Source of the DNA: a virus
Lineage: Duplodnaviria > Heunggongvirae > Uroviricota > Caudoviricetes
Virus record (IMG/VR): IMGVR_UViG_2681813455_000010
Location: 1 to 64,000 of that record
Length of the DNA: 64,000 nucleotides
Reading direction: 5' to 3' (one strand)
The translations under genes were made by a program, and so were the position numbers. The notes beneath the pieces are model-generated. The model was not told the origin of the DNA. It saw nothing but the letters and a program-made list of their open reading frames with translations, and did no database searches. Positions within the stretch are counted from its first letter, which is position 1; the number at the start of each line of letters is the position of its first letter. Shown here in pieces: positions 5,241 to 52,560 of this stretch.

Positions 5241-5320
5241 ACGCAATAAAGAGGCTTCAACATAATTGGTAGCCTCTTTTATAATTACATCGTTACAGAG
5301 CGTTTTAGAGGCGTTTACGG

Positions 5321-6034
5321 CTATTCCTGTTTAAAGGCAGGCGTAATAGTGTCTTCACCTTCACTACTTGATTTTTCAGTGTTAACACGTTTTTTCATAT
5401 TAGCCCCGATGTTCTTAGATGGCTGTGTTTTGAGAGCTACAGTGTTTACAGTGCCATACGACACTAATCTGATTTGCTCAAATTCCAAATCAAATACCAG
5501 AGATTCGCTTGCTTCTTCTGTGTATTCGATGCCTGTTAAAACAACGTTCTCAAAAGTTTTATTTTCTGTAACAAGAAGAAAAGGCTGTCTACTGTCCATA
5601 ATCTGATTTAGATAATCAATCGCTAATGATCTTCTGTTCCCGTTCACCCCTGCACTCTTTAACAAGCCAGGATCGCTTTTAATCGGTGTTTCAGTGATCC
5701 TTCCTTTAAGAGAAAACTTATTGTTTTTAATTTGAACGTGATCAGACACAGTAGCACCATTTTCTACGGGGTAGCTTGTGACATCTGCCGAACGTCTCAC
5801 GTTCACATCGTCTACACTGTCAAAGGCCAGTGCCATATAATTTTCATAAACGTCATTGCCAGAAGATGCCAAGCCACTGGTAACAATAGCAAATCCGTTC
5901 TCTCCTTTTGTTTTATTAGCTTTGCTATTTTCGTTTTTTGTAGAGTTTATATCTTGTTCTGCTTTGTAAACAGCCTGAACGTGTTGTTCTGGAGTATTTG
6001 CTGCACGTATGGTTAAAATCCCGGCGGTCGCCAT
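5321..6034 (-). CDS. hypothetical protein (237 aa)
   Basis: ATG start with AAGGAAA Shine-Dalgarno; co-directional with neighbouring gene block. Confidence 0.45.
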   Translation of the reverse strand: MATAGILTIRAANTPEQHVQAVYKAEQDINSTKNENSKANKTKGENGFAIVTSGLASSGNDVYENYMALAFDSVDDVNVRRSADVTSYPVENGATVSDHVQIKNNKFSLKGRITETPIKSDPGLLKSAGVNGNRRSLAIDYLNQIMDSRQPFLLVTENKTFENVVLTGIEYTEEASESLVFDLEFEQIRLVSYGTVNTVALKTQPSKNIGANMKKRVNTEKSSSEGEDTITPAFKQE

Positions 6035-6067
6035 AATAATAATTTCCTTGTAATGTTATGGCGGGAA

Positions 6068-7897: not shown

Positions 7898-7911
7898 TTA
7901 AAATCCCCTTA

Positions 7912-8115
7912 TTAATCATTTTTATCACCTTCTTTACTTAAGAAATGGTGTAGAGCCTGATCAATACTCTCGTTTAATCTGAACATACGGGCTTTTACTC
8001 CTTCATATGGAACATCTAAAAGAGAACAGAGATATTTCAGATTTAACAAGCCTCTAGAATCATTAGCATCTAGATGTACGTGCACACCATTTTTTGATTT
8101 CAAAATCACTTCCAT
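7912..8115 (-). CDS. hypothetical protein (67 aa)
   Basis: Short ORF tightly packed between neighbouring minus-strand genes. Confidence 0.35.
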   Translation of the reverse strand: MEVILKSKNGVHVHLDANDSRGLLNLKYLCSLLDVPYEGVKARMFRLNESIDQALHHFLSKEGDKND

Positions 8116-8201
8116 ATTTTAATCACCTCTCAAAATTTAAAAATAAATAAAAAAAAGGCGAAGCGTGAATACACGCCACGCCTCTATTACACGTTAAAAT
8201 A

Positions 8202-9230
8202 TTATTTAACAGTGATTTGAACGGAGAAGCCTACACCGTGGTTTACAACCATCTGGCTATTCTCTGTAACAACGTTAACAGCATCACCACGAGAAGATTC
8301 ATAGCTGTAGCTATAGACCTCAGTAGGGGCGGCATTGATCAGTTCAAAGGTGCTGGAAGCAGCCCCGTAGATGTTCTGATATACGTTAGAGCCTTTAGCG
8401 AATTTAGGCACAGCTACAGCGTCTGCGGTCATATGTGCCAGGTGTAGCGGATCTACCAGTTTAATAACATCAATGTTAGTTCCTGGAATAGTGAACGCTG
8501 TCACTCCTGGCAGCAGGTCACGACGCTGATACACAACGTTCCCTTCTTCCAGTGGGCTTACATACTGGAATGCGTTTGCCATACCAGCAGAGAATCGAAT
8601 TGCAGAGAAGGCGTCAGGTTTACAGAAAACAACAATACGCTCTACAGCAGCCGCCTGACTCTGTGCTTTTTCAATAATATCAGTAGCAATCTGATCAAAT
8701 TCTTTAAAAATCTTCGTGGTGTCAGTGCTGGAAGCGTTCACAGTGGCTTTCATAGCTGATACGTTAAACAGCTTGCCCCACTCAATTAACACATCATCAG
8801 TTTTCGGTGTGTAAGTTTTACCGCTAAACAGAGATGCAGCTAGCACGCTCTCTTTTGTACGCTGATACGCTACGTGATGTTTTGCAACATAGTCAGCATA
8901 GATATCAGTGAGTGTTTCCTGAAAATCAGTGCCAGGCTTACGCTTGCCTTGAACATCAGAAGGACGGATCACATCTTCACGAAGAAAATACGGGATTTCA
9001 ATCAGCCATTCTTTACCTTGTTCTCGCTTAGTAACATTGTGTTCAGAAGAGAAACGAGAGGTTTCTTTGTTGAACAGAGATTCGTTGCTTTCGACAAGCT
9101 GGGAAACAGCTACTTTATGAGATGTAACCCCTACAGAATCCGTAAAATCAAGAGTAGAAAGCAGATAGTTTCTAGTGCTATGCGCAGAGAACAGAGGAGC
9201 TAAATCAACGTAATCATTACCTAGAATCAT
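8202..9230 (-). CDS. hypothetical protein (342 aa); possible major capsid protein of lambda gpE-like family (weak, pattern-based)
   Basis: ATG start with AAGGA SD; size and C-terminal half pattern (..RIVVFCKPDAFSAIRF.., ..VVY..) loosely resemble lambda gpE; no search run. Confidence 0.5.
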   Translation of the reverse strand: MILGNDYVDLAPLFSAHSTRNYLLSTLDFTDSVGVTSHKVAVSQLVESNESLFNKETSRFSSEHNVTKREQGKEWLIEIPYFLREDVIRPSDVQGKRKPGTDFQETLTDIYADYVAKHHVAYQRTKESVLAASLFSGKTYTPKTDDVLIEWGKLFNVSAMKATVNASSTDTTKIFKEFDQIATDIIEKAQSQAAAVERIVVFCKPDAFSAIRFSAGMANAFQYVSPLEEGNVVYQRRDLLPGVTAFTIPGTNIDVIKLVDPLHLAHMTADAVAVPKFAKGSNVYQNIYGAASSTFELINAAPTEVYSYSYESSRGDAVNVVTENSQMVVNHGVGFSVQITVK

Positions 9231-9248
9231 TTATTATTATTCCTTTTA

Positions 9249-9611
9249 TTAAGAAGTGAAAACCGTATTAAAGCCTTCAAGCTGGAAGCCTTTTTTAATT
9301 AATGCTGTTTTTGCTGCTTCACTTACAGCATTCAGGGCATCAGCTTTAATGCACACAAGGCCAGCATTGCTACGTAGCACATCTACAGGCTTGTTTTCTC
9401 CTGCCGTTACAAATTCACTCATAACAACATAGATATCATCTCCTGATTCATATTTAGCGCCCGTGCTTGTGATCAAGTCGCCACACTCAACATCAGCAGG
9501 AAGAGAAGCAAAAACCTTGCTTTCTACAGAGGCAAACGGATCAGTACAATAACTTACAATATCTGTGAAAGTCTTTCTAACTGGAAACAGAGTGTCTAAA
9601 TCAATAATCAT
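9249..9611 (-). CDS. hypothetical protein (120 aa); possible head decoration-like protein (position-based guess)
   Basis: ATG start with AAGGAGA SD; immediately upstream of capsid-like gene. Confidence 0.4.
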   Translation of the reverse strand: MIIDLDTLFPVRKTFTDIVSYCTDPFASVESKVFASLPADVECGDLITSTGAKYESGDDIYVVMSEFVTAGENKPVDVLRSNAGLVCIKADALNAVSEAAKTALIKKGFQLEGFNTVFTS

Positions 9612-9820
9612 TTAGTAATCTCCTTAGCTTTTAATTTGATTAATTCATTAAGGGAAGGTGTAGACGGAGAAGAAGGAGAAAAATATTTTTCAACACATCT
9701 TTCTACTTCCTCTACAGAACACCCAGCGTATTTAGCTACCATTTCGGTAATTTGTGGATTAATTTTCAGCATTTCATCTTTATACTTGATGATTTGCTCT
9801 TTATCATTTAAGAACAACAT
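9608..9820 (-). CDS. hypothetical protein (70 aa)
   Basis: ATG start, 4-bp overlap with downstream gene (coupling). Confidence 0.4.
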   Translation of the reverse strand: MLFLNDKEQIIKYKDEMLKINPQITEMVAKYAGCSVEEVERCVEKYFSPSSPSTPSLNELIKLKAKEITK

Positions 9821-10169
9821 TTATATAAACCTTGTTACCTTGTTTAAAGTAAGAAATACAACTTTTAAGTTGCATAACGGGCAAAATAAAAGGCAGCATT
9901 TAGAGCCGCCTTTTATTAACTTGTACCTATGTAATTACCCTATGTTATGCATACTCCAAGATGTATGCATAACAAAGGAAAAAAGAGGTAATAATGACAC
10001 AGTATTACTTAAGGAGGAGAAGCGGGGAGCGGAGATTTTACTCCCCTTTAACGACAAGAAGAATTTTTAATATCGAACCAATAAAGGAAAAATAATCACC
10101 CCTATATAATTATATTAACATACAATAGATGAAATGTCAAGATATTTTACAACTTTTTTGTTGCTTTTT

Positions 10170-10538
10170 TTATTCTTCTGTGATAGTAGCGCCTAAGCGT
10201 TGAGCTAGTTCAACAAGGCCATCTCCCACATAGCGAACATCAGATTCAATATCTTCTATCCAGTTTGAGAGACTCCATATCTGATCCGCTGTCAGATATG
10301 CGTTCTCACGCTTACAGAGCATCTCTACACGCTTAGAGAGGTGCTCAAAGGCATTCACAGCTAAATCCCAGTGTTTAAACGCCTCATTGAGTGCCGCTGG
10401 CGTGTTTTCTCTGTATGCTTCAAGTTCAGCACGGTTTAAAGGCAGGAGGTAATCATCCTCATAATAATTAATTAGTGAGTAAATTGTGTCATACGTGTTT
10501 TTGTTCATATTAAAAGTCTCCATAGTGATCAGCACCAT
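10170..10538 (-). CDS. hypothetical protein (122 aa)
   Basis: ORF in co-directional block; overlaps upstream gene end. Confidence 0.4.
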   Translation of the reverse strand: MVLITMETFNMNKNTYDTIYSLINYYEDDYLLPLNRAELEAYRENTPAALNEAFKHWDLAVNAFEHLSKRVEMLCKRENAYLTADQIWSLSNWIEDIESDVRYVGDGLVELAQRLGATITEE

Positions 10539-10920
10539 CTAAAATTTGGAATTCAGGGACTAAATTATTTAGGCCATTGGTGGCGAGATAACCGACGTAG
10601 TGATTATAATCTTCAAATCCTAAAATCTGGTATTTGCGTAAATCAGAGCTATCAACGATATACTCTTTTCTTTTTCTAGGTTTCCAGAATACGCCAGGTG
10701 TTGAAGATAAGATTTCTTGTAAGGCGTTAAATTCATCTCCACAAGGCACAGAGGGAGAATGTTCTATGATCTCTGTTTTCCATTCGCCAGGGGCGCTATT
10801 TTGCTTGGTGAGCGTAACTAGCTCTTTAAAGTCTTTACGTCTTAGAATAGATTTAGGTTTACTTAGAAGAGAAGCTGAATCACCGATTTTCTTAACAACG
10901 TTGTTTTTTCTTTTTGCCAT
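10510..10920 (-). CDS. hypothetical protein (136 aa), basic N-terminus
   Basis: ORF in co-directional block. Confidence 0.4.
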   Translation of the reverse strand: MAKRKNNVVKKIGDSASLLSKPKSILRRKDFKELVTLTKQNSAPGEWKTEIIEHSPSVPCGDEFNALQEILSSTPGVFWKPRKRKEYIVDSSDLRKYQILGFEDYNHYVGYLATNGLNNLVPEFQILDGADHYGDF

Positions 10921-11052
10921 TATTTACTTTTCCTTTTCTTTTAAAGGAAAACACCCCGAAATATGCTTCTAACGTGATAAAGAACAATAACCAATACATA
11001 GCTACTATCATAATAATGTTTTCCTTTTATATTTTAATTACATAGAGAGATT

Positions 11053-11331
11053 TTAGAGAGTGGAATAGATGAAGTCTATTTCTTTATCCAGTCTTTTGAG
11101 ATTGAATGTAGAGAAAGATAATTCTTTAATCTCTATAACACCGAAATTTGATAGCTGTCTAAGCCAGAATTTTAAACCATCTTCAGAGCACCCTGCTCGA
11201 TGTAACACATCGCTATATTTTAGCGGTGTTGGCTTTCCTTTATAGAGGTAAGCAAGTGTTTCATAGATGCGTTTTCCTGTGTCATTACACTGAATTCTGT
11301 CTACTTGATTTTTTACTAAATATTGAATCAT
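11053..11331 (-). CDS. hypothetical small DNA-binding-like protein (92 aa)
   Basis: ORF in co-directional block; helix-turn-helix-like middle segment (guess). Confidence 0.35.
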   Translation of the reverse strand: MIQYLVKNQVDRIQCNDTGKRIYETLAYLYKGKPTPLKYSDVLHRAGCSEDGLKFWLRQLSNFGVIEIKELSFSTFNLKRLDKEIDFIYSTL

Positions 11332-11342
11332 AACCCTCCTTA

Positions 11343-12035
11343 TTAAAATGGAATATCAAAGTCTTCATATACTTTGGGATGTTTCTTAGCAAAATATGCC
11401 TCAATACCATTTGGTCGTTTTAGCCCGTATCTACAAGCTAGTGAATTTGCAAACTCAATAAATGATGCCCCTGCTGTTCTGGTATTCTTCTGCTGGCAGA
11501 TAAGAGAGGCAAAATTCTCTAACACATCCTCCTCATTATCATTAGCTACCTTTTCATTTGATGAAACAGGTGTTTCTTCCGTCTCCCACGGCAAAGGCGT
11601 ATCCCAATCATCATCAAGAACATCAAAAGAAGGCTGTTTATGGCCTTTAGGTTGTTCCTGTGCTTCTTCTGCCTCAGAAAGATCAGAGAGTGATGATTCT
11701 CCTGGGGGAGTAATATGTGCATCTGTGAGAGGGAGAGCATTGTAAATCAAAGATGAAATATACGGATCAGGATGTGGGGATGTTTCTAATAATCCCATCT
11801 CTTTAAGATCGTTTATCTTACGTTTAATTGTTGACGATGAAGACTTAAAAATCTTAGCTAATGTTTCGTGACTTTCATAACAATTAAGGTTGTTTTCCTG
11901 ATAACTAAGGAATCGAAAATAAAGCACAATATGTAATAGATCTAAATCTTTTCCTTGAGGGAATTTATCAGAATAAATCTTTGATACATTATCAAACGTG
12001 TCATAGTGTTTTGTAAAAGTTAGTTGATTAATCAT
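11343..12035 (-). CDS. hypothetical protein (230 aa) with N-terminal winged-helix-like segment and acidic linker; candidate replication or regulatory protein
   Basis: ATG start with AAGGAGA SD; ..ETLAKIFKSSSSTIKRKINDLKEMGLLE.. resembles wHTH. Confidence 0.45.
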   Translation of the reverse strand: MINQLTFTKHYDTFDNVSKIYSDKFPQGKDLDLLHIVLYFRFLSYQENNLNCYESHETLAKIFKSSSSTIKRKINDLKEMGLLETSPHPDPYISSLIYNALPLTDAHITPPGESSLSDLSEAEEAQEQPKGHKQPSFDVLDDDWDTPLPWETEETPVSSNEKVANDNEEDVLENFASLICQQKNTRTAGASFIEFANSLACRYGLKRPNGIEAYFAKKHPKVYEDFDIPF

Positions 12036-12086
12036 TAAAAATCTCCTTATAAATCACGCTTAATGCGCTACTAAAGTGAATGAGGA

Positions 12087-12254
12087 TCACTTACCCTTTT
12101 TTTGTTTGATGTTCTCTGCTGCTTCAGTAATGATTTCTAACATCAAATCACTGACCATAATTTGCCTTTTCTTGGCTTCAGCAAATAAAACCTTGAAGAT
12201 TTCAGGGTCAACGTGTAGGTAAGTGCGCGGAATTGGTTTCTTAGTTTCGCTCAT
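12087..12254 (-). CDS. small ribbon-helix-helix-like protein (55 aa)
   Basis: ATG 12254 with AGGAG SD; translation MSETKKPIPRTYLHVDPEIFKVLFAEAKKRQIMVSDLMLEIITEAAENIKQKKGK; below ORF-track cutoff, found by eye. Confidence 0.4.
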   Translation of the reverse strand: MSETKKPIPRTYLHVDPEIFKVLFAEAKKRQIMVSDLMLEIITEAAENIKQKKGK

Positions 12255-12273
12255 AGTTTTCTCCTTCTATTCT

Positions 12274-12462
12274 TTACTCTGTTTCAGATTCTTTTTCATT
12301 TTTTCTTAGTTCATCAATAATCTTGAGTGCTTCATTGAAGCAAGCTGCTCGTTCTGGATAACCTCGACTCCTTGCCATATTACGATTCATTACTACTTGA
12401 TGGCGTGTAAGCTCACCTTTTTTAAATGCCTGGATGACGTGCTCAGGTGTAAACCATTTCAT
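12274..12462 (-). CDS. hypothetical protein (62 aa)
   Basis: Short ORF adjacent to RHH gene. Confidence 0.3.
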   Translation of the reverse strand: MKWFTPEHVIQAFKKGELTRHQVVMNRNMARSRGYPERAACFNEALKIIDELRKNEKESETE

Positions 12463-13221
12463 AAAAAACTCCTTATTCAGTTAAAAGAAAAACACCTTGC
12501 AAGCCTGACGGCTTCAAAGTGCATTGATTTTGATTATTTAGAGAAGAATGTTTTTCTGTCCCTCTAATACCTATTATTACATATAAAGAAACATTTGTCA
12601 ATACCTTTTCACAAAAAATCTGATCTTTTTCATGCACTTACATTTTTTCTTAGCAATTCGTGCTCTTCTGTGTAGTGCTATTCTTCATTATTGTCTAAAA
12701 CGCTCTAAAACGCGTTCTAACGAGATTTTGATAAAAGCAATACATTCCCTTATGTAATGGCTGTTTAGCTCGCCAGAGGCTTATTTAAGGGGCTTATTTT
12801 GTATTTGTTAGGTATATGAAAAGGTAATGGTAGATATAAGATAGAGAGTCACTTTATAAAACGCTCTGTAAAGCCCTGTAGTGAGCTTATATATGTAGGC
12901 AATGCGTTTCCATTCCCTACCCTGCTTAATGCTGTTAGAGAAGCATTTAGACCCCTTATTTTTAATTAATTAAAGTATCCTCTATACATTCCTGTTATGA
13001 AACACCTCTGAATCCTTCATAAAACACATTATGACGCAAAGAACACTTTTCTAAGGTGATTCCCTTTCTGAACTCTGTTTCTTGCGTCAAAGAGCTACAC
13101 AGAGTTTATAAAGCTATTATTAATAATAAAGTAGATAAAGTAAGTAAGATAACTAAGATAGATAAGATTAATAAGATCAGAATTCTCTTTCGGTGTCGCC
13201 TCTGGCTTTTCCACCGAAAAC

Positions 13222-13384
13222 AATTACACGACTACAGAATGTAGGAAGTGGAATTGTATTGAGGCTTAGTGAAATTACACGAGGAAAGCAGAGTGTAATT
13301 GAGCTTTAGCCGCTCTCTCTTCGAGTAATTACACAACTACAGAGAATAACGAGAGTTATTAAGTGTAGGAGGGTAATTACGAGG
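13222..13384. repeat. cluster of 4-5 AATTACAC(G/A)A-containing repeats (two 17-bp near-identical copies at 13222-13238 and 13327-13343)
   Basis: Read directly: aattacacgactacaga / aattacacgagg / aattacacaactacaga / aattacgagg. Confidence 0.6.
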
Positions 13385-13620
13385 TAGAGAGATAGAGTTA
13401 ACACATAAGCAATCTATGATTGGTTAGGTGATTACTCTTCTGCGCACAGCGCAATAGTATTTCTTCGTGGGCGTTACCGCCAACGATAGTTACACGAAGA
13501 AAGTAACGCTTTGCTTTCGGTGTGAGCGGAACGGGCCAGCCAACGTAGCCCGAAAGGTAGCGGAGTAAGGCTGCTTGCCAGAGAGTGAAGCTAACGCCGG
13601 AAGGCAAAAGATCATATATA

Positions 13621-13821
13621 TATATAGATATAAAGAATATTATTATTATGATCTAATTAATAATCTAATATAGTTTTATTAATAGTCTTATTGTAGTTCA
13701 CAGTGACCTACCCCCTAGCTCACTATGACCTACCCCCTAGCTCATAGTGAACTACCCCCCTAGTTCACAGTGACCTACCCCCTAGGTCACAGTGACCTAT
13801 ATAGATATAAAGAATATTATT
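13621..13821. repeat. iteron array: ~4.5 tandem 22-bp repeats (TCACAGTGACCTACCCCCTAGC type, 13698-13800) bracketed by 24-bp AT-rich direct repeats (13621-13644 and 13798-13821); putative plasmid-type replication origin
   Basis: Tandem near-identical 22-mers read directly; flanking TATATAGATATAAAGAATATTATT duplicated; extra iteron copy near 13975-13990. Confidence 0.7.
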
Positions 13822-13872
13822 TAATTATTATTTAATTATTCTTATTAACTTATTCTTATCGGGTATCAGTTT

Positions 13873-13957
13873 TGATAGGGGTAGGGGTATCAATATTGAT
13901 AGGGGTATCATCGGTTTATTATTCTTTATAAACCCCTGTTAGACTTGATAGGGGTAA
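13873..13957. repeat. three to four TGATAGGGGTA repeats
   Basis: ttgataggggta recurring at ~13873, ~13896, ~13946. Confidence 0.55.
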
Positions 13958-14644
13958 CAGAATTCTGTGGGGGTAGCTCACAGTGACCTACCGTTACTAC
14001 CAACTTTCTTACAGAGAGCATTTCAGATAGCTGAATGTAACCTCTCGTTACATCCATTTGTCACATAGCACTCTGTGTAATGCCTTTCTATGTGTGTGCC
14101 ATAATCCCCCCTATATTCCCTGTGTAAATCATAGAATATCCCTAACTTATTCCTGTGTAATTCCATACTAAAAATTAAATGAAAAGTAGCTTAAAAGTGC
14201 AATTCTTACTTTCTTCACTTTTACATCACTTTCGCAAAGCCTTGTGTAGTGCGGCTTACAGAGCACTATCAGAAATTGTTGGCTAAAAAATGTTCTGCTT
14301 GTTTCTTAATGAGTTCTCTCGTTTGTGCAAATTTTAAAATTTATTTTGTTTTTACAGCCTTATTTCGTGTAATGCGTGGCATAGCAAGCCCTTTTCTTGT
14401 GTTGTCAAGACATTTGGCAACGTTCAAACATCTGTTTAGAAATGCCAAATTGTTGATCTAACAAATAAACCTGTATAAACAGAACACCATTTAATCTATC
14501 CCCCTGTGTATCCATTAGGCATACCAAATGAATACAGTTAAATCGTGTAATATTCCGTACCTATAAGGCTTGAAACAGACCAAATGAATACGGTATACTC
14601 ATTTGCATTGAAGTAGTGCCAAATCGATACATTAAGGGGCTTTT

Positions 14645-15184
14645 ATGAGCAATATCGGTTATAAGCGTGTGAGCACTGTAGATCAGAACACTGATCGCCA
14701 GCTTGCAGGAGTAACTCTCGATAAAGTCTTTGAAGATAAGCTGTCTGGTAAAGACACTAACCGTCCAGGCTTACAAGCGTGTTTAGCCTATCTGAGAGAA
14801 GGCGACACCTTACACGTGCACTCTCTCGACCGTTTAGGACGTAACACCTTAGACATCCTTGCTTTAGTTGAACAACTTAATAATCGAGGTGTGATTGTTC
14901 GATTTCACAAAGAAGGGATCATTGCAGACATTACAAGCGCGATGGGAAAAATGATGCTTACTATGTTGTCGGCAGTGGCAACGTGTGAACGTGAACTGAT
15001 GCTAGAACGTAAACGAGAAGCGCAAGCCGTCAATCCTACAAAGCGTGGTAAAGGTAAAGCAGTAGATAGAGAAGGTATAAAGAAAGCCCTTTCTGATGGC
15101 GTGTCAGTGCGTAAAACCGCCGAGATCTTTAATGTTGCTCCTTCAACGGTGCAACGTATCAAGAAGGAAGAAGAGGAGGCGTAA
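14645..15184 (+). CDS. serine recombinase (resolvase/invertase family)
   Basis: 179 aa; N-terminal YKRVSTVDQ motif with catalytic Ser, C-terminal HTH; ATG start. Confidence 0.8.
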   Translation: MSNIGYKRVSTVDQNTDRQLAGVTLDKVFEDKLSGKDTNRPGLQACLAYLREGDTLHVHSLDRLGRNTLDILALVEQLNNRGVIVRFHKEGIIADITSAMGKMMLTMLSAVATCERELMLERKREAQAVNPTKRGKGKAVDREGIKKALSDGVSVRKTAEIFNVAPSTVQRIKKEEEEA

Positions 15185-16376
15185 TGCCTCCTTGATATTT
15201 GGGGATTCTGGATTTTCCAGATCGGGGGGCGCTGAAAATCGCGTTAAGCACCTCTCGCAATCTAGCCATAAGGGAGGGGATATAGGTATTAAGATGTATT
15301 TATAGCTATTTATGGCTATTTATTTTTTATTTACCTTTATTTAAAAATAACCTTATAAATCAATAAGATACAGAACTATCTGTTTATATTTTAACCAATT
15401 AAATCAAGTTTAATACCCTTAAATAACCTGAAAATAGCCTTAAATACCCCAATAATTAATTTTAAGGCTTTCCGTGTTCTCTCCTGCATTATGAAAATGC
15501 AAAATAAGGCACAAAACAAGCTCACAGACGCATTAAACACACATCACCTATACATCCCTATACCAAGCAATGAAAACAGCGTTAGAATGCGTCCTGTTGC
15601 GCTCTGGAGATTTTCAGAAATCCTCTCTAAGCCATTTCAACTCACTAAGGAGTTTTCTTTCTTCGTTCTCTCGTTGCTTTCGCTCTAGCCAGGCTTTTCC
15701 TTCTGGCGTAGACAGGAACTTACGAGCGTGAATCTTGCGGTTATTCCGTTTGATAGCTGCAATGTTTTTCATCGTGTGCCTCTGTATTCATATGAAAATT
15801 AACAAGTTACATACTACACAGGGAGACTACGCATAAAACACAATACAAGTAAAGATACATTTTCAAGACAATAGGAGCCATAAAGCGCCTTTGATGGTTA
15901 TACCAAAAAATAAGCGCCGTAGGCGTATCCACTAAAAAGGGCTTTTTCACAAAAGCTATGAAGTCTTAGCAGTTCTTCTCTTATCAGGCACCCGTTGTAC
16001 TCCGGTGGACGAAACCGTGCTAGAGCTTGATTCTTTCCCGATCAAGTTAGGTTTTGAAGAGGTGGGCTTTAATCCACTATTGCACTTAAAACTCTTCCCA
16101 TCATTTAGCCTGTTTATCCTCTGCAACGTCTCACGACGTGTAGCATCATTGGACACCGCGCCAGGTGTGGAACATCTTGCTAAGAGTTTTGGTAGAAGGT
16201 TTAGAGACGGTGGCACGTCTTCCAGCTTCAAAGGAACTTGTTACGAGGTTGAGCCTGGGAACTACTCGCCCATACGTGTTACACTACCAAAGCCCATAAC
16301 AACGTATAGGCGTTTGTAAGTGATAACAGAAGATACAATTTCTTAGAGAAGTTAAGCTAAGTTATTGATTTTCTTG

Positions 16377-16396
16377 ATGGTGCCGATAATAGGAGT
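16377..16396. repeat. second copy of 20-bp direct repeat ATGGTGCCGATAATAGGAGT (att)
   Basis: Identical to 3810-3829. Confidence 0.65.
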
Positions 16397-16422
16397 CGAA
16401 CCTACGACCTTCGCATTACGAA
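16378..16422 (-). tRNA. tRNA-Thr (anticodon CGU, thrW-like) 3' 45-nt fragment (anticodon loop to CCA); not a complete gene
   Basis: Reverse complement TTCGTAATGCGAAGGTCGTAGGTTCGACTCCTATTATCGGCACCA has a T-arm (GTAGG/TTCGACT/CCTAT), acceptor 3' strand and CCA; sequence beyond 16422 cannot pair as acceptor/D-arm. Confidence 0.6.
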
Positions 16423-16761
16423 TTATAAGAATCCGTTTCTAATTCAAAGAATTACCCCATAAACACTGCGCTCACACGTCCCACCACATCAAAACATGTA
16501 AAGCCTTGCAAGCCATTGTGAGGCCTTATGTGTCTCAGTTTTGTCCCACCTTGTATTACGACTTGCATAGCCGATGAAGATAAACGCGACGACAAACGGC
16601 GCAGCAGTCTTCCTTTCTTTCACGACTTCCCCATCCCAAGCATGCATACCTTTCCGCCATAACTGTAGTGAATGTCTGTTATGAGCGAATTGAGGACGTA
16701 ACACTAGCAATTGCTGCTGGTTTGGAGCGTAGCAGAAAACCAGTTCGACAAAATTCGGTTG

Positions 16762-17802
16762 TTAGGCCTTTTTTAAGTACTCTCTCTGAATATTATTTGT
16801 AAGTTCAATTCTGTTAATCTCATTTGGGGTAAAAACCAAATTAACAAAACCCGCTTGTGCAGCGTGTAATTCCCCAGTATTTTCTATTTTCCCCTGCGAT
16901 TTTAACTCATATTCTAATGCATGGATGAGCTGTACCAATTTTTTACCCCTAGAAGTGAGTGGTGCCATAAAAGATGGCTGTCTATAACGATCATACCATT
17001 CAATCATGCATTCAGAAAAATCAATATCAGCTATATGTTGATGCACGATGAACTTTATATACTCAAACAAAAAATTTTGTTCTGAATCACCGACTCCGAT
17101 TCCAAAAGGTAAATTTTGATTATCCATTTCAATTTCTGCTATTCCTAATGCCATATCCATACCAAAATATAAAGATCGTCCGGCATTAGTTAGGCCAGTA
17201 CAGAAAAGATTGAAATATGAGACAGGAAATGAAGCATTGTTACTCTCAGTCTTAATCAAATAGTCTAGGATAGCTTCGACAGACATGATGTCTTGATCTA
17301 AAATCGCAAATCCTTCAAAGAGTTTTTTAGCACTGGTCAATTGCAAGACATTTGATTTGGGTATGGTAATACCCTTTGCATCAGTTGTCTTGGAAACTCT
17401 TAATGCATGGCGAACATCTTGCCAATAACTTAAATTTGTTTCTGGGTTGTGAATAATAATAAGCACAGGCAATGGAAATCTTTCCCAGTAAAATCGATGC
17501 TTCTCTTCCGGGTAGAAAATCCAATATCCATTACTTTCCTTAAAAAAGGACACCCCTGACTTTATTTGAACGGCTATTATCCTTCCTGTAGCAAAACCCT
17601 CGGGACTGACATACTCAATCTGACCATCAATTCCAACGTCAGCCATCGGAGTTTCACGCCAAATCTGGCCAATTTTGGCCATTGCTTCCGCTACAGCATT
17701 TACACCCAATCTTTCTTGAGAATTAGTCTGGTTATATTTTGGGAAATTCATATTTTTTCTCAATCGCATGACACTGGCAACATTTCCTTCAAAATCTGGC
17801 AC
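16762..17802 (-). CDS. DUF4365-like (restriction-endonuclease-fold) N-terminal domain protein with unknown C-terminal domain; candidate defence protein. Start uncertain (GTG 17802, ATG 17769 or 17751)
   Basis: N-terminus ..ERLGVNAVAEAMAKIGQIWRETPMADVGIDGQIEYV..IAVQIKSG.. matches recalled DUF4365 pattern with D...E.K-like residues; AT-rich. Confidence 0.45.
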   Translation of the reverse strand: MPDFEGNVASVMRLRKNMNFPKYNQTNSQERLGVNAVAEAMAKIGQIWRETPMADVGIDGQIEYVSPEGFATGRIIAVQIKSGVSFFKESNGYWIFYPEEKHRFYWERFPLPVLIIIHNPETNLSYWQDVRHALRVSKTTDAKGITIPKSNVLQLTSAKKLFEGFAILDQDIMSVEAILDYLIKTESNNASFPVSYFNLFCTGLTNAGRSLYFGMDMALGIAEIEMDNQNLPFGIGVGDSEQNFLFEYIKFIVHQHIADIDFSECMIEWYDRYRQPSFMAPLTSRGKKLVQLIHALEYELKSQGKIENTGELHAAQAGFVNLVFTPNEINRIELTNNIQREYLKKA

Positions 17803-18050
17803 GAAATTTCGCCAGAAATTTAAGTTTAGGTTTGTGGCCCATTGCTGACTTTCAATAGGTTTCTACTCAAACAAAGAAAACAATCCAAACAACCCGGTAC
17901 TGTCTATTTTTGAGTGTTCGAAAATCAACTCATAGTTATTGACTATTTATTTCTCCAGTGATTTTGTAACTTTTTTGGGGCACTGTAAAGTCACATCAGA
18001 CGAAGATTGTTCGTTTTTGGCATAGGGCTGCTGTTGCAACCCTGACAACC

Positions 18051-18341
18051 TTAGACTTCAACCGATTCAGAGATCTCTAACGCATCATCAACTTCAATGC
18101 CCAGATAACGGACTGTGCTTTCCAGTTTCTTATGGCCCAACAGAAGTTGGATCACCCAGAGATTCTTGGTTTTCTTGTAGATCAGGTAAGGTTTTGTTTT
18201 TCTCATGGAATGTGTGCTGTAAAGCGAATCTTCGAGACCAAGCTTTTCTACCCACCCATGAAAGATTCGGTTGTATTGCCGGGTTGATATGTGCCGATTA
18301 GTTCCGATCCGAGACCGGAACAAGAAGTCTTTACTATGCAA
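18051..18341 (-). pseudogene. C-terminal remnant (~96 aa) of a tyrosine recombinase/integrase
   Basis: ..HSMRKT..LLGHKKLESTVRYLG.. = conserved H-x-x-R / LLGH / Y catalytic box; no N-terminal domain upstream. Confidence 0.6.
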
Positions 18342-18376
18342 ATTAACAGGCTGTATACACAGCCTGTTAATTTATG

Positions 18377-19516
18377 CTAGAGCTTATAAAGCTCAGTTAA
18401 TCTAGCTTTTTCTTTGGCAAATTCTTCATCAAGGTTCGAGAAGTCTGGAAGTGTAACCATTAAATCCTTAAGTTGATGAATAACATTCCAGGCATCGTAA
18501 TGAATAAAGGGGTTTAAGCCAATAACGTTTCCCTCATCATTATTTTTAGATTTTCCTACACCACATAATTTGATGAATTTGTTGATTGCAGTTGTTTCAT
18601 TCCAGTCAGAAACAAAAAGAAGCAAGGCAGAAACAGCCAAAAGGGGATTGTTTTTTTTAACAGCGGATAAGCTCCTGATCTTTCTGAAAAGAAACTCGTG
18701 ATGTCTAGTTATTTTTTGTGCTATCCTTATCGTTGCTTCATATTTATCTTTAAGCAACCTTCTATCATAAACCTGATAACCTCGATCTCGTGCTACTAAT
18801 CGATATGCTTGTTTAGTAAATGTGGTGCTATTCACAAGATTATAGAAAATAGCATTATTCTTATTGGTCATATCGATCATCAATGATGGGTATTTGAATC
18901 TTAAAGAACGATAAACTTCATCGTTTATATCAAACCAAGATTTATTTTTTCTCTCTTCAGTGACAATATATGTATCTTCTCCTTTGCGGGAATACATGCT
19001 GGCTCTTACTAGATTGATCATGTGAGGGCTGTAGTTAACAGAAAAAGTGCCTGATTGGCGTAATTCAGTAAACCACCGTCGCATGTTTCTAATATCTTCC
19101 TGATTGAACTCTTCATGTTCAATACCTCTACATACAAGCTCTCGAATTATACTTGTAATCTCAGAGTCGGAAGTGCCTAATTTTATAAAACCATCCTTTG
19201 AAGAATCTATTTGTTTATCATCCCCATTGTAATGATCGCAAAATATTTTGTGCGCGTCTGTTCCGTCTTTTGTTCTAAACGAAAAATGAGATTGGCTAAC
19301 TATTTTATTTGTTGTTTTCGAATAACCTTCTGAAACAACAATTGCACCGCTTACATTACAAATTGGGCACTCTGCATCAAACGCAACAAATTCCTTGAAA
19401 TCACTAAAATTAAGTACGTTATTTGATAAATAAAGGTTTAGCAATTGAACTATGTCCAATTCCTTTTTGAATGTACGAGAATAGACCGTAATTGCCATTT
19501 GCACTCCCTTCGTCAT
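18377..19516 (-). CDS. hypothetical protein (373-379 aa); probable start ATG 19498 (AAGGGAG SD)
   Basis: Long AT-rich ORF with good SD; no recognisable family by eye. Confidence 0.5.
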   Translation of the reverse strand: MTKGVQMAITVYSRTFKKELDIVQLLNLYLSNNVLNFSDFKEFVAFDAECPICNVSGAIVVSEGYSKTTNKIVSQSHFSFRTKDGTDAHKIFCDHYNGDDKQIDSSKDGFIKLGTSDSEITSIIRELVCRGIEHEEFNQEDIRNMRRWFTELRQSGTFSVNYSPHMINLVRASMYSRKGEDTYIVTEERKNKSWFDINDEVYRSLRFKYPSLMIDMTNKNNAIFYNLVNSTTFTKQAYRLVARDRGYQVYDRRLLKDKYEATIRIAQKITRHHEFLFRKIRSLSAVKKNNPLLAVSALLLFVSDWNETTAINKFIKLCGVGKSKNNDEGNVIGLNPFIHYDAWNVIHQLKDLMVTLPDFSNLDEEFAKEKARLTELYKL

Positions 19517-20442
19517 AAATTCAGTTTGTATGAAATATTATCGCATAAAGATACTGATGAGCCAGTAATATAACTAGAAAATATTTTTTGTGGTTCAGCG
19601 ACCTAGACGTCTGCTACTGGCACAGAGCAGACCATCGGACTGAACTGAAGGTCCTCTCTGTGCGAGAAACGGAAGTTAGCAATTGTGATACAGACGTGGG
19701 GCATTACTCGCTTTACAGTGTGTTAATCAATTGGAAACAGGTCAGAATTTATTGGGTGGAATGACACCTTTAAACTTCTTGCGCATCGCAAGGAATATCT
19801 CCACCAGACGGTAAGACAGTAGATTGCGCCACAAGTCCTCAGAATGCCCTTTGCTGGGTTAACCACACGTCGTAATCATCCTTCCAGTGCAGCGGATCAA
19901 GATCGTAATGCTCATAGTCACGCGATTTCAAATACAAGCCCAGTGGTGTTATCCGTGAGCTGGACAGTGCTTCCGGCAACATGACTGAGACAGACAAAAA
20001 ATCAGTTAGTACAGCATTGACTCAGGTTGAGCAGGAGTTAAAACAAACTGGGCTGGAGCAGTAGAAGCCTGCAGTGAATTCCCTGAATCAGGCGATTAAG
20101 GTGGCTTAAGAGTCCGTGTATGCCATGTGCCGCGAGATGTCGTGCTATACGTGAAAGTCAGCGATATATATCGTTTTGAAGATGATTTAGGTTACGGGAG
20201 TGTCTCTGGGTGATGTATTACTTCATCGACATCGGCTACGCACGGGTTGCCGCGATGCAGCGGATGGAAGCTGTCTGGGAAAAGAAAGCTCCGCTTGCTA
20301 ATATTAGTACATCCGATGAAAAATCGTGTGTGAAAGTTGCAGATTAGTAATATACTAATGAAGAATGGAGATGTATTTTATATAATAAAAACATCTAAGT
20401 AGAGCTTTTTATTTTAAATCCTTCATTATTACTGGAGATTTT

Positions 20443-22221
20443 ATGGGTTTTTATAATGACGCACTGAGTAAAATATATAGTGAAGATGATGATTTCCTAA
20501 TTATAGGATTAACAGGGAGGACGGGGTCAGGCTGTTCAACAGTTTCTAATATACTGTCATCAGAATCAAGTGAGATAAAGCATTCTCTATTTAACGGTGA
20601 TTACCCTAAGTCGAATGAAGAAAGAAAAGAGCGGGTTCTATTTAAATATTTTTCCGTGTCATGGGTTCCATTTATAAAAATACAAGCAAGTTCCATACTG
20701 ACATTGTGTTTATCAAAGGACTTTGATGGTAAGCTGAATAAATTTATTCGGGAAGTGACGGAGTTAGGTAATGACCAAAGAATCCTAGAGTCAACAGTTA
20801 ATGATCTTGAATCTATACTAAAAGAAATTAAAGCTAAAGATGAAAGCTCTGATCATGATATAGATGATAAGATAAAATTCATAAATGAATATCTAATAAA
20901 AGCGAATACACAAATTAAATCCATATTTAAGAACAAGGCTGACTATATAAAATTATATCAAGCTATAGGTAATAATTATAGATCTAGTGGGATGTACCAT
21001 GACAGTTCATTTAGTGATGATTTCCATGGCTTTTTTCTTCCTAAAAAAATAAATGATATAATTCAAAGATTAAGAACCTTAGCAAAAGAAAAGAACACAA
21101 AAACTGGAGAAAAGAAACCTATTTATATAGTTATTGATGCTATAAGAAATCCGTTCGAAGCAACATACTTCCAAGATAGATACTCATCATTTTATTTAAT
21201 GGCTGTTTCTACAGAAGAGCATTACAGGCATCAAAGGCTTAGAGAACAAGGTTTAACTGATGCTGAGATAAAAGATATTGATGCAAAAGAATACCGTAAA
21301 TCATCTTTGGATGAGAAGTCATCATATATATATCAGAATATACAGTCTTGTTTAGAAATATCAGACATCTATGTTGAGAATCCGGAAGAGGAAAATGTTG
21401 TTTGTCGGTACTCAGGATTGGCTAATCAATTAATTAAATTCACTTCATTAATGAAGCGTCCTGGTATAATAACTCCATCAAATGTTGAACGTTGCATGCA
21501 GATAGCATATACAGCTAAGTTGAACTCTGGTTGTATATCCAGGCAGGTAGGCGCTGCAGTATCTGATAGTTCATTTTCAATTAAGTCTATTGGTTGGAAT
21601 GATGTACCAAGTGGTCAAGTTCCTTGCTCTTTAAGGGATAGGTTTGATTTGTCTGAGGGGATTGATGATATTGCTTACTCTGAATTCGAAAAGAACGAAA
21701 ATAGTTTCATTCGAAAAATAGATAGCACTAAGATTATTTTTTTAGATGTTAAAAATAAAGGAATGAGAGCTCCATTTTGTTTTAAAACAGAATGGAATAA
21801 TATCCTTGATGATAAATACAAAGAAGATCTACGGGTCGAACATAAGTTAAATGATGATGAGTTTGCTATTATTGACAAAATAAAGTCTAACGCTAATCAA
21901 GTTTTTACAAGATCACTTCATGCTGAAGAGAATGCTTTCTTACAAATATCTAAGTATGGTGGCGTTGGTATACAGAATGGTTTTTTGTTCACAACAGCAA
22001 GCCCTTGTGAATTATGTTCTAAAAAAGCGTATCAATTAGGGATCAAACAAATATATTACATAGATCCATACCCTGGTATAGCAATGAGGAATATTTTAAA
22101 CGCAGGGAGCAATAAACCATTGCTTAAGCTTTTCAATGGTGCAATAGGTAAGGCATTCCATAATTTTTACACGCCAAGAATGGCTTATAAAGATGAGCTT
22201 TCAGCAAGATCTAGGGGATGA
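20443..22221 (+). CDS. P-loop kinase-like N-terminal domain fused to cytidine/dCMP-deaminase-like C-terminal domain; candidate nucleotide-depletion defence protein (dCTP-deaminase type)
   Basis: ATG with GGAG SD; N-terminal GLTGRTGSGCST P-loop-like motif; C-terminal HAEENA...SPCELC zinc-deaminase signature. Confidence 0.55.
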   Translation: MGFYNDALSKIYSEDDDFLIIGLTGRTGSGCSTVSNILSSESSEIKHSLFNGDYPKSNEERKERVLFKYFSVSWVPFIKIQASSILTLCLSKDFDGKLNKFIREVTELGNDQRILESTVNDLESILKEIKAKDESSDHDIDDKIKFINEYLIKANTQIKSIFKNKADYIKLYQAIGNNYRSSGMYHDSSFSDDFHGFFLPKKINDIIQRLRTLAKEKNTKTGEKKPIYIVIDAIRNPFEATYFQDRYSSFYLMAVSTEEHYRHQRLREQGLTDAEIKDIDAKEYRKSSLDEKSSYIYQNIQSCLEISDIYVENPEEENVVCRYSGLANQLIKFTSLMKRPGIITPSNVERCMQIAYTAKLNSGCISRQVGAAVSDSSFSIKSIGWNDVPSGQVPCSLRDRFDLSEGIDDIAYSEFEKNENSFIRKIDSTKIIFLDVKNKGMRAPFCFKTEWNNILDDKYKEDLRVEHKLNDDEFAIIDKIKSNANQVFTRSLHAEENAFLQISKYGGVGIQNGFLFTTASPCELCSKKAYQLGIKQIYYIDPYPGIAMRNILNAGSNKPLLKLFNGAIGKAFHNFYTPRMAYKDELSARSRG

Positions 22222-23022
22222 AAATATTGATACAGCTAAAGGCAACGAACCAGAAATGCTCGAGACTATTCTGGCTAAGTCTGCCGGGCGATAAGCACGA
22301 GTGCAGATGCTGTTCCAAAAGTCTTCTATTCAATAAATTACGAAGTGCTAACTAACTGACCATGTACAATAAGAACAAATCACCTTGAATTGCTCTTGAT
22401 TGAATGGTGAAGAATTATGAGGGTGATAGTCCTTACCACCCTCAATTAAAATTAAAGGTATTTACGTGAGAAATTTTTCTTAACCACACTACTAATAAAA
22501 CTATTTAGTCCATGCCCATCCTGGGCTAGCTCTTTCATCTTAGAGACCGTTGAAGCACCCAGTTTTGTAGAATCGTAACGTATTTCCATCCATCTTTAAA
22601 CTGTACTGTGATAACATCGGGAGTAATCTCATAAAACACTATTCCCGAATTACCGCCTTAATTAGCATAAGTTGGCATTTTTTATTCTTATTAAATTATT
22701 GCAGCAAGTCGCTGCACTCTAGTCATATGACCCCATGCTAAACCTAATTGTTGAGCTAAGTCATAATTTCGATTATTTGATGAACGTAAGTTATTTGACA
22801 GGCAGAATTAACCATACACAGTAATATCCGTTTCTGGCACATAGCAGTCCTATAGATAGTGGCATACAGTCATAGATGGTCGATGGGAGGAGGTGCAAAT
22901 TCTCCCATACAAAAAATACGTAAAATCAATAACAGCTGGAAATTATTTAATAATCAAATTATCGGAAGTTCACCAGCCAGCCGCAGTATTCTGCCACGAC
23001 AAGTTGCTGCGGCTTTTTATGT

Positions 23023-23310
23023 TTAACGGATAAACAGCCAGACCAGCAGACACGCCACCGCCGGCACCGCAAAATCCATCAGACTTGCTACATCCCACGC
23101 GCTTGGATCAAAACCGCCCCACCACGGCATATTCATACGCTTGCCATGCCCGAACATTTCAATCCAGCGATATTCTGCCTGGGTGTGTTCACGCGCAATG
23201 AAGAACGTACAACCGGCTATCGCTCCGTAAGCCCAGTTCCCGGTAAAAAGACCAATCAGTAGCTGCGCAGCCACAGCACAAAGTGCATGAAGTAAGGGGC
23301 TTATATCCAT
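23023..23310 (-). CDS. small membrane protein (95 aa)
   Basis: ATG with AAGGAGGAG SD; two hydrophobic helices. Confidence 0.45.
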   Translation of the reverse strand: MDISPLLHALCAVAAQLLIGLFTGNWAYGAIAGCTFFIAREHTQAEYRWIEMFGHGKRMNMPWWGGFDPSAWDVASLMDFAVPAVACLLVWLFIR

Positions 23311-23320
23311 TACTCCTCCT

Positions 23321-24025
23321 TTATCCGATATCGCTTCGGGAAGTTGATAACAGCTTTAATTCTGACTCAAGTTCATCAACTCTTTCAGTCAGCTTCTGGA
23401 TATGGTGAATCAGTGGAACAACCAGACGTTCGTACATTACACCTTCGGCAACAAGGCCATTGCTGGAAATAGCTTCCGGTGCATCATCTTCGTTAGCTGG
23501 TCGCCAGTGTACAAACTGAGGGGCAATTTCTCCTACTTCCTCGGCAATCAATCCGTAGAATCCCCAGTCACGCCTATCATTTTCGCATTGCGACCTGTAC
23601 CACACAGGGCGCATCTTGAAAATGAGATCGGCGTGCTCTGAATCTATCGTCTCTACTGAATGTTTATAGCGGATAGACGATGTTGACCGCAGTACAGACG
23701 AAATTGCAGGGTCAGGATTAAGATAAAGGTTTGCCGCCGCAGTTGTCGTGCCCAACCCCCATAAATAAAACGCTTCGCGGCCAGTCAGCGGGTAAAAATC
23801 TCCACCATAATTACCGCTTTCGAGAGCATTCACTTCCAGTTTGTTTTTCAGCTTATTATCAACTTCAGTTTTTGTGTATCTGGTGCTGATATCCTGCTTT
23901 GCACTGGCCATATCAGCCTGAAGCGTTGATACTTTTCCGTTAATTGAGGAAATATCTTCCTTAGTTTTACTGACATATCCCTTCAGCGTGGTAATGTCTC
24001 CCGGAATTACTGTCGATGTAGCCAT
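23321..24025 (-). CDS. tail-fibre-associated protein with C-terminal intramolecular-chaperone-like (peptidase S74-like) region
   Basis: ATG with GAGGAAG SD; C-terminal ..SSIRYKHSVETID..WGFYGLIAEEV..LVAEGVMYERL.. pattern recalled from auto-cleaving tail-fibre chaperone domains. Confidence 0.45.
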   Translation of the reverse strand: MATSTVIPGDITTLKGYVSKTKEDISSINGKVSTLQADMASAKQDISTRYTKTEVDNKLKNKLEVNALESGNYGGDFYPLTGREAFYLWGLGTTTAAANLYLNPDPAISSVLRSTSSIRYKHSVETIDSEHADLIFKMRPVWYRSQCENDRRDWGFYGLIAEEVGEIAPQFVHWRPANEDDAPEAISSNGLVAEGVMYERLVVPLIHHIQKLTERVDELESELKLLSTSRSDIG

Positions 24026-52536: not shown

Positions 52537-52560
52537 CGCAATTATGCTGTCACGACATAA

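Follow-up and report, generated by a model that had tools for sequence, protein, structure and literature searches.

The stretch of DNA analyzed here (the window) covers 64,000 nucleotides, positions 1 to 64,000 of the IMG/VR virus record IMGVR_UViG_2681813455_000010, and belongs to the chromosome of the Escherichia coli blood isolate SF-468 (NZ_CP012625.1, ~3.89 to 3.95 Mb). Within it, we concentrated on a gene coded on the reverse strand, here termed the orphan gene, that is followed by the 3' end of a tyrosine integrase gene, lies between copies of a short repeat, and has an antiphage dCTP deaminase gene on one side and a gene for a DUF4365 restriction endonuclease-like protein on the other. 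We found that the orphan gene and the integrase fragment are one 1.6-kb module bounded by a repeat resembling a recombination site and that the orphan gene is mobile cargo that keeps the company of defense genes from E. coli to cyanobacteria.

The mechanically called open reading frame (ORF) of the orphan gene extends over positions 18377 to 19516 of the reverse strand and encodes 379 amino acids (aa). Its true start is the ATG at 19498-19496, giving a product of 373 aa with the stop at 18377. An initial annotation made from the sequence alone had described a long, well-initiated ORF beginning at this ATG behind the Shine-Dalgarno sequence AAGGGAG, and that description stands: in an alignment of 55 diverse homologues with identities down to 25%, the motif M-x-I-T-x-Y/F-S opens every sequence at the equivalent position, and the Prokaryotic Genome Annotation Pipeline (PGAP) arrives at the same 373 aa (WP_064759822.1). 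The gene has a GC content of 34%, versus ~50% at the ends of the window (positions 1-2000 and 50001-57000). When the window allele was compared with others at protein identities of 99%, 92%, and 70%, the pairwise ratios of nonsynonymous to synonymous substitution rates (dN/dS) were 0.10 to 0.12, and a fourth comparison, between two 92%-identity alleles themselves, gave 0.14. These values exclude a pseudogene, one of the findings that the initial annotation had named as fatal to its proposal; together with the 103 full-length homologues described below, they also rule out a chance ORF. The orphan ORF is a real gene under purifying selection. A perfect palindrome just past its stop codon is probably its terminator; the scan for intrinsic terminators made no call there, the T-tract being short. 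We surveyed the context of the homologues at 62 loci, one genome per species, by calling ORFs, clustering the neighbors, and naming the recurrent clusters. Because intergenic gaps usually flank the homologues at these loci, the orphan gene behaves as an independent transcription unit.

A word-indexed search retrieved 103 homologues, nearly all of 365 to 400 aa and every one named "hypothetical," and a profile searched exhaustively against 1.84 billion cluster representatives returned 216 matches (E ≤ 0.001), each standing for a cluster at 50% identity. All 216 are full-length proteins of ~375 aa or fragments thereof, with no domain fusions, and the family ranges over Enterobacterales, Vibrionaceae, Acinetobacter, Pseudomonas, many Alpha- and Betaproteobacteria, heterocystous cyanobacteria, and one flavobacterium. 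The hidden Markov model of PHROG 12525, a phage protein family of unknown function, matches residues 1-372 over profile positions 1-356 of 399 (E = 1.1e-138). Beyond this, the statement of the initial annotation that no motif could be assigned was upheld by every search that we ran: the protein has no significant match in Pfam or NCBIfam and none among the 5027 defense-protein models of PADLOC-DB v2.0.0 (zero families at E ≤ 0.1). The remote-homology check that the initial annotation had recommended gave E > 2 in a profile search of PDB chain sequences, and a fold comparison of the predicted model with the PDB yielded no known relative. Three Pfam matches were set aside: SabA_adhesion (E = 0.007), which falls below the cutoff and was dismissed as noise; DUF7516, a subthreshold and uninformative match in 11 of the 55 members (best E = 8e-4; in the single member checked, it spans residues 4-42); and DUF7367, likewise weak, subthreshold, and uninformative among the 55. 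Accession searches of literature full texts and of the DefensePredictor supplements gave no match. An orphan gene in a defense hotspot is a familiar idea, and the novelty lies in the protein, which belongs to PHROG 12525 and no other described family and has no likeness in sequence, model, or fold to defense-island candidates.

The conservation pattern of the 55-member alignment supports a metal site. The initial annotation had noticed a CPICNVSG...H..C cluster as perhaps metal binding, and at the level of sequence this is borne out: the cluster resolves to C44-P-I-C47 and H83-K-I-F-C87, and all four metal-ligand candidates (C44, C47, H83, and C87) are invariant. A CxxC knuckle (C44-x2-C47) followed by a second pair (H83-x3-C87) is the spacing seen in zinc ribbons and treble clefs, and this Cys2-His-Cys set very probably constitutes a conserved zinc site. 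The other invariant residues are T4, S7, E13, Q18, F72, F74, M139, R140, A288, L294, G323, G327, N329, and P330; those conserved in at least 90% of the sequences include, among others, D15, D41, Q69, H71, W142, and D245. A confident AlphaFold2 model computed with the family alignment (predicted local distance difference test score, 90.9; predicted template modeling score, 0.87) comprises an N-terminal β/α module (residues 1 to ~95), in which the nearly invariant H71 lies, and an all-helical body that contains the invariant G323/G327/N329/P330 loop (GNVIGLNPF).

Evidence that the gene moves comes from Serratia sp. Ag1, which in BLAST comparisons shares positions 18012 to 19628 with the window at 98% identity, with both flanks unrelated to the window. 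The initial annotation had recognized the ORF at 18051-18341 as a decayed integrase C terminus, in agreement with the limited part of the Pfam profile that it covers (Table 1) and with its PGAP call as a pseudogene without an N terminus. Taking it as merely the decayed integrase of a local element is no longer tenable, as the same fragment and gene travel together in Serratia. In a sample of 40 rows from the 2,392 matching records (BLAST, complete E. coli genomes), the integrase 3' end (18008/18018-18356) corresponds in 11 rows to genes annotated as site-specific or tyrosine integrases, and this widespread homology ends at 18356, in the middle of the palindrome (18343-18370). The module is bounded by copies of a repeat with the consensus GTCYGCTNYTGGCACAGRGC, which was derived from five independent junctions and forms the dyad GTCYGCTCT / TGGCAC / AGAGCRGAC; five loci align upstream of the gene as far as the site B motif and then diverge in or just past its center. 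The window holds three co-oriented copies (sites A, B, and C) versus a chance expectation of 0.05 matches with up to three mismatches, and none of 100 shuffles reached three copies; one of the copies is trivially expected, having contributed to the consensus. They delimit two segments, one with the integrase fragment, the 28-bp palindrome, and the orphan gene and the other with the dCTP deaminase, and the best-extending match to a prophage backbone (BLAST, complete E. coli genomes) starts at 22837, inside site C. A sigma-54 promoter reading of the TGGCAC core was rejected by eye, the -12 element being missing or misplaced.

Table 1. Features of the orphan gene locus, in window positions
Feature	Position	Strand	Remarks
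tRNA-Thr (thrW) 3' fragment, 47 nt, attachment site (att) scar	16377..16423	+	Outer end of the cargo region
DUF4365 restriction endonuclease-like protein, 346 aa	16762..17802	-	Pfam E = 1.5e-31; 575 bp downstream of the orphan gene
Site A, repeat GTTCGTTTTTGGCATAGGGC...	18009..18032	+	Left boundary of the module
Tyrosine integrase C-terminal fragment	18018..18356 (ORF 18051-18341, 96 aa)	-	Pfam Phage_integrase, E = 4e-11, profile positions 92-166 of 172
Perfect 28-bp palindrome, 12-bp stem, 4-nt loop	18343-18370 (extendable to 34 bp, 18340..18373)	.	6 nt past the stop codon of the orphan gene
Orphan protein coding sequence	18377..19498	-	373 aa, 43.4 kDa, pI 8.7, no transmembrane segment
Shine-Dalgarno sequence AAGGGAG	19504..19510	-	5 nt 5' of ATG 19498; read directly
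Site B, exact match to consensus GTCYGCTNYTGGCACAGRGC	19609..19632	+	Bounds the module on the right; 111 nt 5' of the ATG; imperfect 9-6-9 dyad
Site B', inverted degenerate partner of site B	19651..19674	-	18 bp from site B; composite of ~66 bp
Antiphage dCTP deaminase, 592 aa	20443..22221	+	PADLOC dCTPase, E = 5e-127; NCBIfam antiphage_deaminase, E = 1e-110
Site C, third repeat copy	22826..22849	+	Homology to the prophage backbone begins here

A likely source of the integrase fragment is suggested by a 200-aa "site-specific integrase" that consists of the catalytic domain only and is present at two of the loci inspected (WP_024178309.1; L196, 7034-7636; L065, 13273-13875). In E. coli 2012EL-2448 and EC25, this integrase lies in a Qin-type hotspot flanked by hokD and DUF977, and in 2012EL-2448 the repeat lies directly 3' of its stop codon; the order there is integrase, site, the 92%-identity allele of the orphan gene, a second and more diverged integrase fragment, a degenerate site, and a gene for a 417-aa hypothetical protein. 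Two readings fit the 200-aa protein: a remnant, or a hotspot recombinase of minimal size.

The repeat is widespread outside the window. A degenerate form of the pattern, GTCYGCTNYTGGCACARRGC[GGAC], an imperfect dyad of 20 to 24 bp, occurs in at least 120 IMG/VR contigs, against ~7 chance matches by our own rough estimate, which assumes ~6e10 bases. With the contigs aligned at the repeat, the sequences to its left are hypervariable and those to its right form a few conserved classes. Among the matches listed, the nearest gene on the right always ends ~70 nt from the site and codes for a 140-aa DUF977-type protein (36 sites), a 175-aa protein resembling a tail fiber assembly protein (25 sites), or replication region proteins; an integrase end and a tail gene end are further conserved backbones found beside the repeat. 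The 175-aa class has, on the cargo side, a 396-aa protein resembling a P2-type tail sheath (DUF977 is the annotated name, and the 175-aa and 396-aa proteins were identified by our own reading of their sequences). Because at least five unrelated backbone genes carry the same motif beside them, the motif itself, rather than the backbone, is the conserved unit. From a random draw of 20 cargo ORFs, we tested the 10 that have a site within 450 nt, and 6 of them strongly match PADLOC models: ThsB (9e-128), TIR-TM (1e-111), PDC-S15 (7e-99), PDC-S51 (1e-73), PDC-S35 (1e-69), and a Ppl/LmuB-like protein (7e-22). Strain TCM3e1 provides a further case, as its lambdoid prophage at icd has the same backbone end followed by a different cargo of three genes. 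The repeat looks like the core site of a recombinase. No recombinase consistently adjoins it in the ~120 viral contigs fetched.

The position and content of these sites agree with classical hotspots of temperate phages, namely, P2 Z/fun and tin/old, the P4 hotspot, and the morons of the lambda b region, which likewise lie downstream of tail fiber or assembly genes near att and carry exchangeable defense genes; the 175-aa class, as identified by its sequence, sits at the classical Z/fun position. Site-specific recombination has reportedly been proposed at the P2 Z/fun locus by Nilsson and coworkers in 2004, and the present repeat may be the site in question. Comparison with integron cassettes revealed both likenesses and differences. 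The module shares with them promoter-proximal single genes, imperfectly palindromic bounding sites, the end of a tyrosine recombinase gene, and changing neighbors. However, the sites in the window (consensus GTCYGCT-N2-TGGCAC-A-RRGC) lack the R and L box structure of attC, and there is no IntI-type integrase: the 96-aa piece derives from the different ~200-aa "site-specific integrase," and the genes for recombinases nearby are a remnant of a 200-aa integrase and those of small serine recombinases. The module accordingly contains neither attC nor an IntI gene with attI. Hotspots are defined by conserved flanking genes in Rousset et al. 2022 (PMC9122126) and in the iLund4u preprint (10.1101/2024.10.15.618418), the latter of which describes DNA invertases as abundant in hotspots; a term search of the two texts returned no mention of a 20- to 24-bp junction repeat.

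This association with putative recombination sites raises the question of whether the orphan protein processes the DNA of its own module, either as a recombination directionality or cassette mobilization factor or as an HNH-type nuclease. Its basic pI and zinc-type motif would suit such a role, as would the repeats flanking the gene, the integrase fragment that travels with it, and the small serine recombinases that adjoin homologues in Pectobacterium (divergent) and in a Pseudomonas metagenome-assembled genome (MAG; convergent) and lie 3.2 kb away in the window. Moreover, one Acinetobacter member (P0283) bears the name "HNH endonuclease" in UniRef. The name is not sustained by our analysis: no HNH family is matched at E ≤ 1 by any of the 55 members or by P0283, and the predicted fold lacks the ββα-metal arrangement of HNH/His-Me finger nucleases. 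None of the 55 members matches another nuclease or a recombinase family, and no homologue of the orphan protein is encoded in the ~120 repeat-bearing viral contigs, so the sites do not need it. Our check for such repeats and integrase fragments covered a minority of the homologues, outside the alpha- and betaproteobacteria and cyanobacteria that supply most of the family. On balance, we regard a DNA-processing role as very unlikely.

The survey of homologue contexts, another step that the initial annotation had called for, revealed a recurrent association with Gabija. GajA and/or GajB, the OLD-family nuclease and UvrD-type helicase of this system, are encoded within 6 kb of the family member at 29 of the 62 species-level loci and at 14 of 38 when the members are dereplicated at 90% identity (37 to 47% overall), which makes Gabija the commonest neighbor of the distant family members. 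Three subfamilies of GajA are involved (PADLOC E = 1e-192 to 1e-279), each with its GajB, in at least four arrangements: convergent with a 36-nt gap, a GajA-GajB pair upstream and codirectional, a codirectional pair downstream after a gap of 74 to 118 nt, and the third subfamily further upstream. In two halomonad genomes (Vreelandella and Halomonas), HamA-HamB of the Hachiman system is directly upstream and codirectional (HamB PADLOC E = 0). Tyrosine integrases and a YhcG/DUF1016 nuclease are further recurrent neighbors, and no neighbor is conserved across the whole family.

This linkage would fit an accessory factor or sensor of helicase-nuclease systems that recognizes a phage cue or inhibitor, in which case the enterobacterial copies would be orphaned or have unlinked partners. 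The three GajA subfamilies, the gaps of often 24 to 120 nt, the immediate succession to HamAB, and a frequency of Gabija that is, given its general prevalence, far above expectation for a random island gene all speak for it. Against these stand the inconsistent orientation and the usual intergenic gaps, which indicate that there is no fixed operon; the 33 of 62 loci without Gabija or Hachiman nearby; and their absence near every inspected locus with a homologue of at least 35% identity, the window included (all of these Enterobacterales except for one Photobacterium and one Pseudomonas MAG). The gene nevertheless stays intact and under purifying selection without such partners. The orphan protein is itself related to neither GajA nor GajB, and the window encodes neither of them. 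The published GajC, which belongs to type II Gabija (PMC13069673), is MazF-like and unrelated to the orphan protein, which rules out that identity. We consider the accessory role unlikely, if less so than a role in DNA processing.

Closer relatives occupy varied mobile settings. The Pectobacterium homologue (70% identity) lies in an island between two serine recombinases; that of Pantoea (54%) is cargo of a conjugative element, with an FRG domain PDC-S15 gene (E = 5e-105) 2 nt downstream; and that of Salmonella (42%) is on an IncFII plasmid. Rare in E. coli, where 19 of 5,426 complete genomes carry it, the gene still turns up there in at least four contexts, namely, the prophage end in SF-468; an island at thrW that also holds Fic/VbhA, trb remnants, and an ABC-three-component system; a Qin-like prophage, in which hokD and a DUF977 gene flank it; and an island at ychF, in the company of a caspase family protein. 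The 417-aa hypothetical protein mentioned above (WP_000042049.1), which has no Pfam or PADLOC match, follows the 92%-identity allele at five loci (L065, 10133-11386; L002, 9067-10320; L004; L073; L074) in three types of context, the thrW island of three E. coli strains, the Qin-like prophage, and Serratia montpellierensis. It is absent beside the 98 to 100% alleles of SF-468 (the window), Serratia sp. Ag1, and E. coli isolate 12, and it could be a partner or just a neighboring cassette. In alphaproteobacteria, we noticed a codirectional gene for a 387-aa protein 24 nt downstream of the family member (L024 to L026 and L034) and one for a 257-aa protein 0 to 52 nt upstream (L026, L029, L032, L033, L035, L037, and L060). 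Neither product matches Pfam or PADLOC, and both are possible clade-specific partners.

Plasmids form another large reservoir, with homologues on 267 plasmids of PLSDB. Most of these come from Klebsiella, Salmonella, E. coli, and Enterobacter, measure ~110 kb, and match the family in the manner of the Salmonella phage-plasmid SSU5 (27% identity), and plasmids of Salmonella, Shigella, and Yersinia carry copies at 41 to 45% identity. SSU5_107 (YP_006906739.1) is a true homologue, with 28% identity over 92% of the protein, the same overall length, and the N-terminal motif; its gene shares an accessory region of SSU5 with that of a DNA methyltransferase and with numerous small ORFs. Copies of this type recur on the ~110-kb SSU5-like plasmids, in contrast to the copy in the window, which is exchangeable cargo of a prophage hotspot. 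This distribution invites the view that the protein is an anti-defense or interelement competition factor, for instance a decoy or an inhibitor shielding the incoming element from host immunity, and the presence of homologues on plasmids (conjugative or of the IncFII type), on a conjugative element, and among the early or accessory genes of SSU5, together with the match to a phage protein family, is in keeping with it. On the other hand, a protein of 373 aa whose putative active or binding center is conserved is large for a typical inhibitor, the chromosomal copies are embedded in defense islands beside complete systems rather than in plasmid leading regions, and most of the cargo near the sites in hotspots with the same repeat matches defense models. 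We hold an anti-defense function to be improbable, somewhat less so than DNA processing.

We favor, with reserve and as something short of an even bet, the reading that the orphan protein is a stand-alone immunity protein against phages or mobile elements, with an N-terminal recognition or catalytic center and a helical transducer or effector. In the scheme that we infer, in which zinc binding, the defense function, and each mechanistic step are all predictions, the family would spread as a self-contained, separately transcribed cargo gene through variable defense hotspots carried by prophages, phage-plasmids, conjugative elements, plasmids, and genomic islands. Most of the invariant polar residues (T4, S7, E13, D15, Q18, D41, Q69, and H71) fall in the basic N-terminal module, which the putative Cys2-His-Cys zinc site would hold together and which might recognize nucleic acid or a phage product; the helical body with its invariant GNxIGLNPF loop could then transmit or execute the response. 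The nearest analogues in this respect are single-gene defense candidates such as PDC-S15, which are similarly midsized, cytoplasmic, separately transcribed, and located on mobile elements or in defense islands. PDC-S15 directly follows the Pantoea homologue and also fills repeat-marked hotspots; the orphan protein differs from such candidates in sharing no sequence or fold similarity with them and in having no PADLOC model.

Several considerations weigh against an immunity function. The protein has no homology to any validated defense protein, and the effector step is a guess, as no catalytic motif was found. Guilt by association fits regulators, accessory factors, and anti-defense genes, too, and the copies on SSU5-like ~110-kb plasmids (~27% identity) could mean a role in the life cycle of the element or in counterdefense. 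The Gabija linkage is confined to a branch at 26 to 32% identity, is missing from the Enterobacterales branch to which the orphan gene belongs, and may not transfer to the protein in the window, and the test of 10 cargo ORFs is a small sample picked for being nearest to the sites. What probability the readings discussed here leave over falls to some other role.

If the protein proves protective, it would be a defense gene without precedent in sequence or structure, and it would bear on the host range of therapeutic phages and on the ecology of plasmids and phage-plasmids, since it is common among clinical E. coli, Klebsiella, and Salmonella, where its carriers include chromosomes, virulence plasmids, and phage-plasmids. 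Its repeated pairing with Gabija and Hachiman offers a concrete starting point for testing what complements helicase-nuclease systems. The repeat, for its part, may be a physical handle by which defense genes are swapped between prophage hotspots, which, if true, would explain hotspot turnover and supply a sequence tag for finding new cargo. A bolder synthesis, to which we give little credence, combines these threads: the family would be a new zinc fold infection sensor working beside helicase-nuclease systems (Gabija and Hachiman) in many proteobacteria, and in enterobacterial prophages defense cassettes would be shuffled at the 24-bp dyad GTCYGCT-N2-TGGCAC-A-RRGC-GGAC, making tail-end and Qin-type hotspots integron-like arrays.

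The orphan gene lies in an AT-rich stretch of the window (2 to 23 kb, 33 to 45% GC) that separates the gene for the Vat autotransporter (vat) from lambdoid prophage tail genes. The region with the orphan gene is 100% identical in SF-468 and three other strains. The initial annotation had proposed that the gene is cargo of a degraded element. Its status as mobile cargo among defense genes is upheld by our results; the host, however, is the cargo region at the tail fiber end of the lambdoid prophage, between the last tail gene and the tRNA-Thr scar, and not an independent degraded island. This region occupies the position of the b region of lambda, from the last tail gene to att. The thrW 3' fragment at its outer end is an att scar of tandem element accretion at thrW. 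The window has no intact tRNA to go with this 47-nt fragment, and an unusual annotation, that of a 112-nt "tRNA-Ser," is given to the 98%-identical DNA of strain JMF1 (L002, 6518-6629) that overlaps 16377-16423. Neither the repeats nor the intergenic gaps matched an RNA family when positions 12000 to 23500 were searched with Rfam (gathering score and E ≤ 1).

The two candidate defense genes that the initial annotation had placed within 1 kb of the orphan gene are both confirmed as such. The dCTP deaminase gene, 945 bp upstream and divergently transcribed, lies in the segment 19633-22826; its product combines a kinase-like N terminus with a dCMP/cytidine deaminase domain and scores 370.7 bits against the NCBIfam antiphage_deaminase model, just below the curated cutoff of 400 bits. 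Among complete E. coli genomes, only the four SF-468-like strains carry this DNA. The DUF4365 protein has a restriction endonuclease-like N-terminal domain, with Aga_REase-PNTD as its best PADLOC match (E = 8.5e-22), followed by a C-terminal half that could not be assigned, and may be a separate single-gene defense candidate.

Further elements are packed around this region. Adjoining vat and the gene for a MarR family regulator, the stretch 3963-12462 encodes a tyrosine integrase, a "phage baseplate protein," a major capsid protein, regulators, and many small hypothetical proteins and, by its PGAP names, looks like a phage satellite of the capsid-encoding kind. Five tandem 22-bp iteron-like repeats (CTAGxTCACAGTGACCTACCCC) are present at 13689-13801, with a sixth copy 190 bp away (13973-13992) and a pair of 23-bp repeats at 13861-13907, in a 2.2-kb region without an annotated gene; they are probably the replication origin of an adjacent element. 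Positions 14645-15184 of the forward strand encode a 179-aa serine recombinase of the resolvase/invertase type with a C-terminal helix-turn-helix domain, which strain JMF1 retains along with its surroundings and which is a candidate enzyme for the 24-bp repeats. Finally, inside the lambdoid prophage, a cspA-type thermoregulator 5' untranslated region (48732-49124, reverse strand; Rfam RF01766, 156 bits) recalls the cold shock gene cargo of Qin- and Rac-type prophages.

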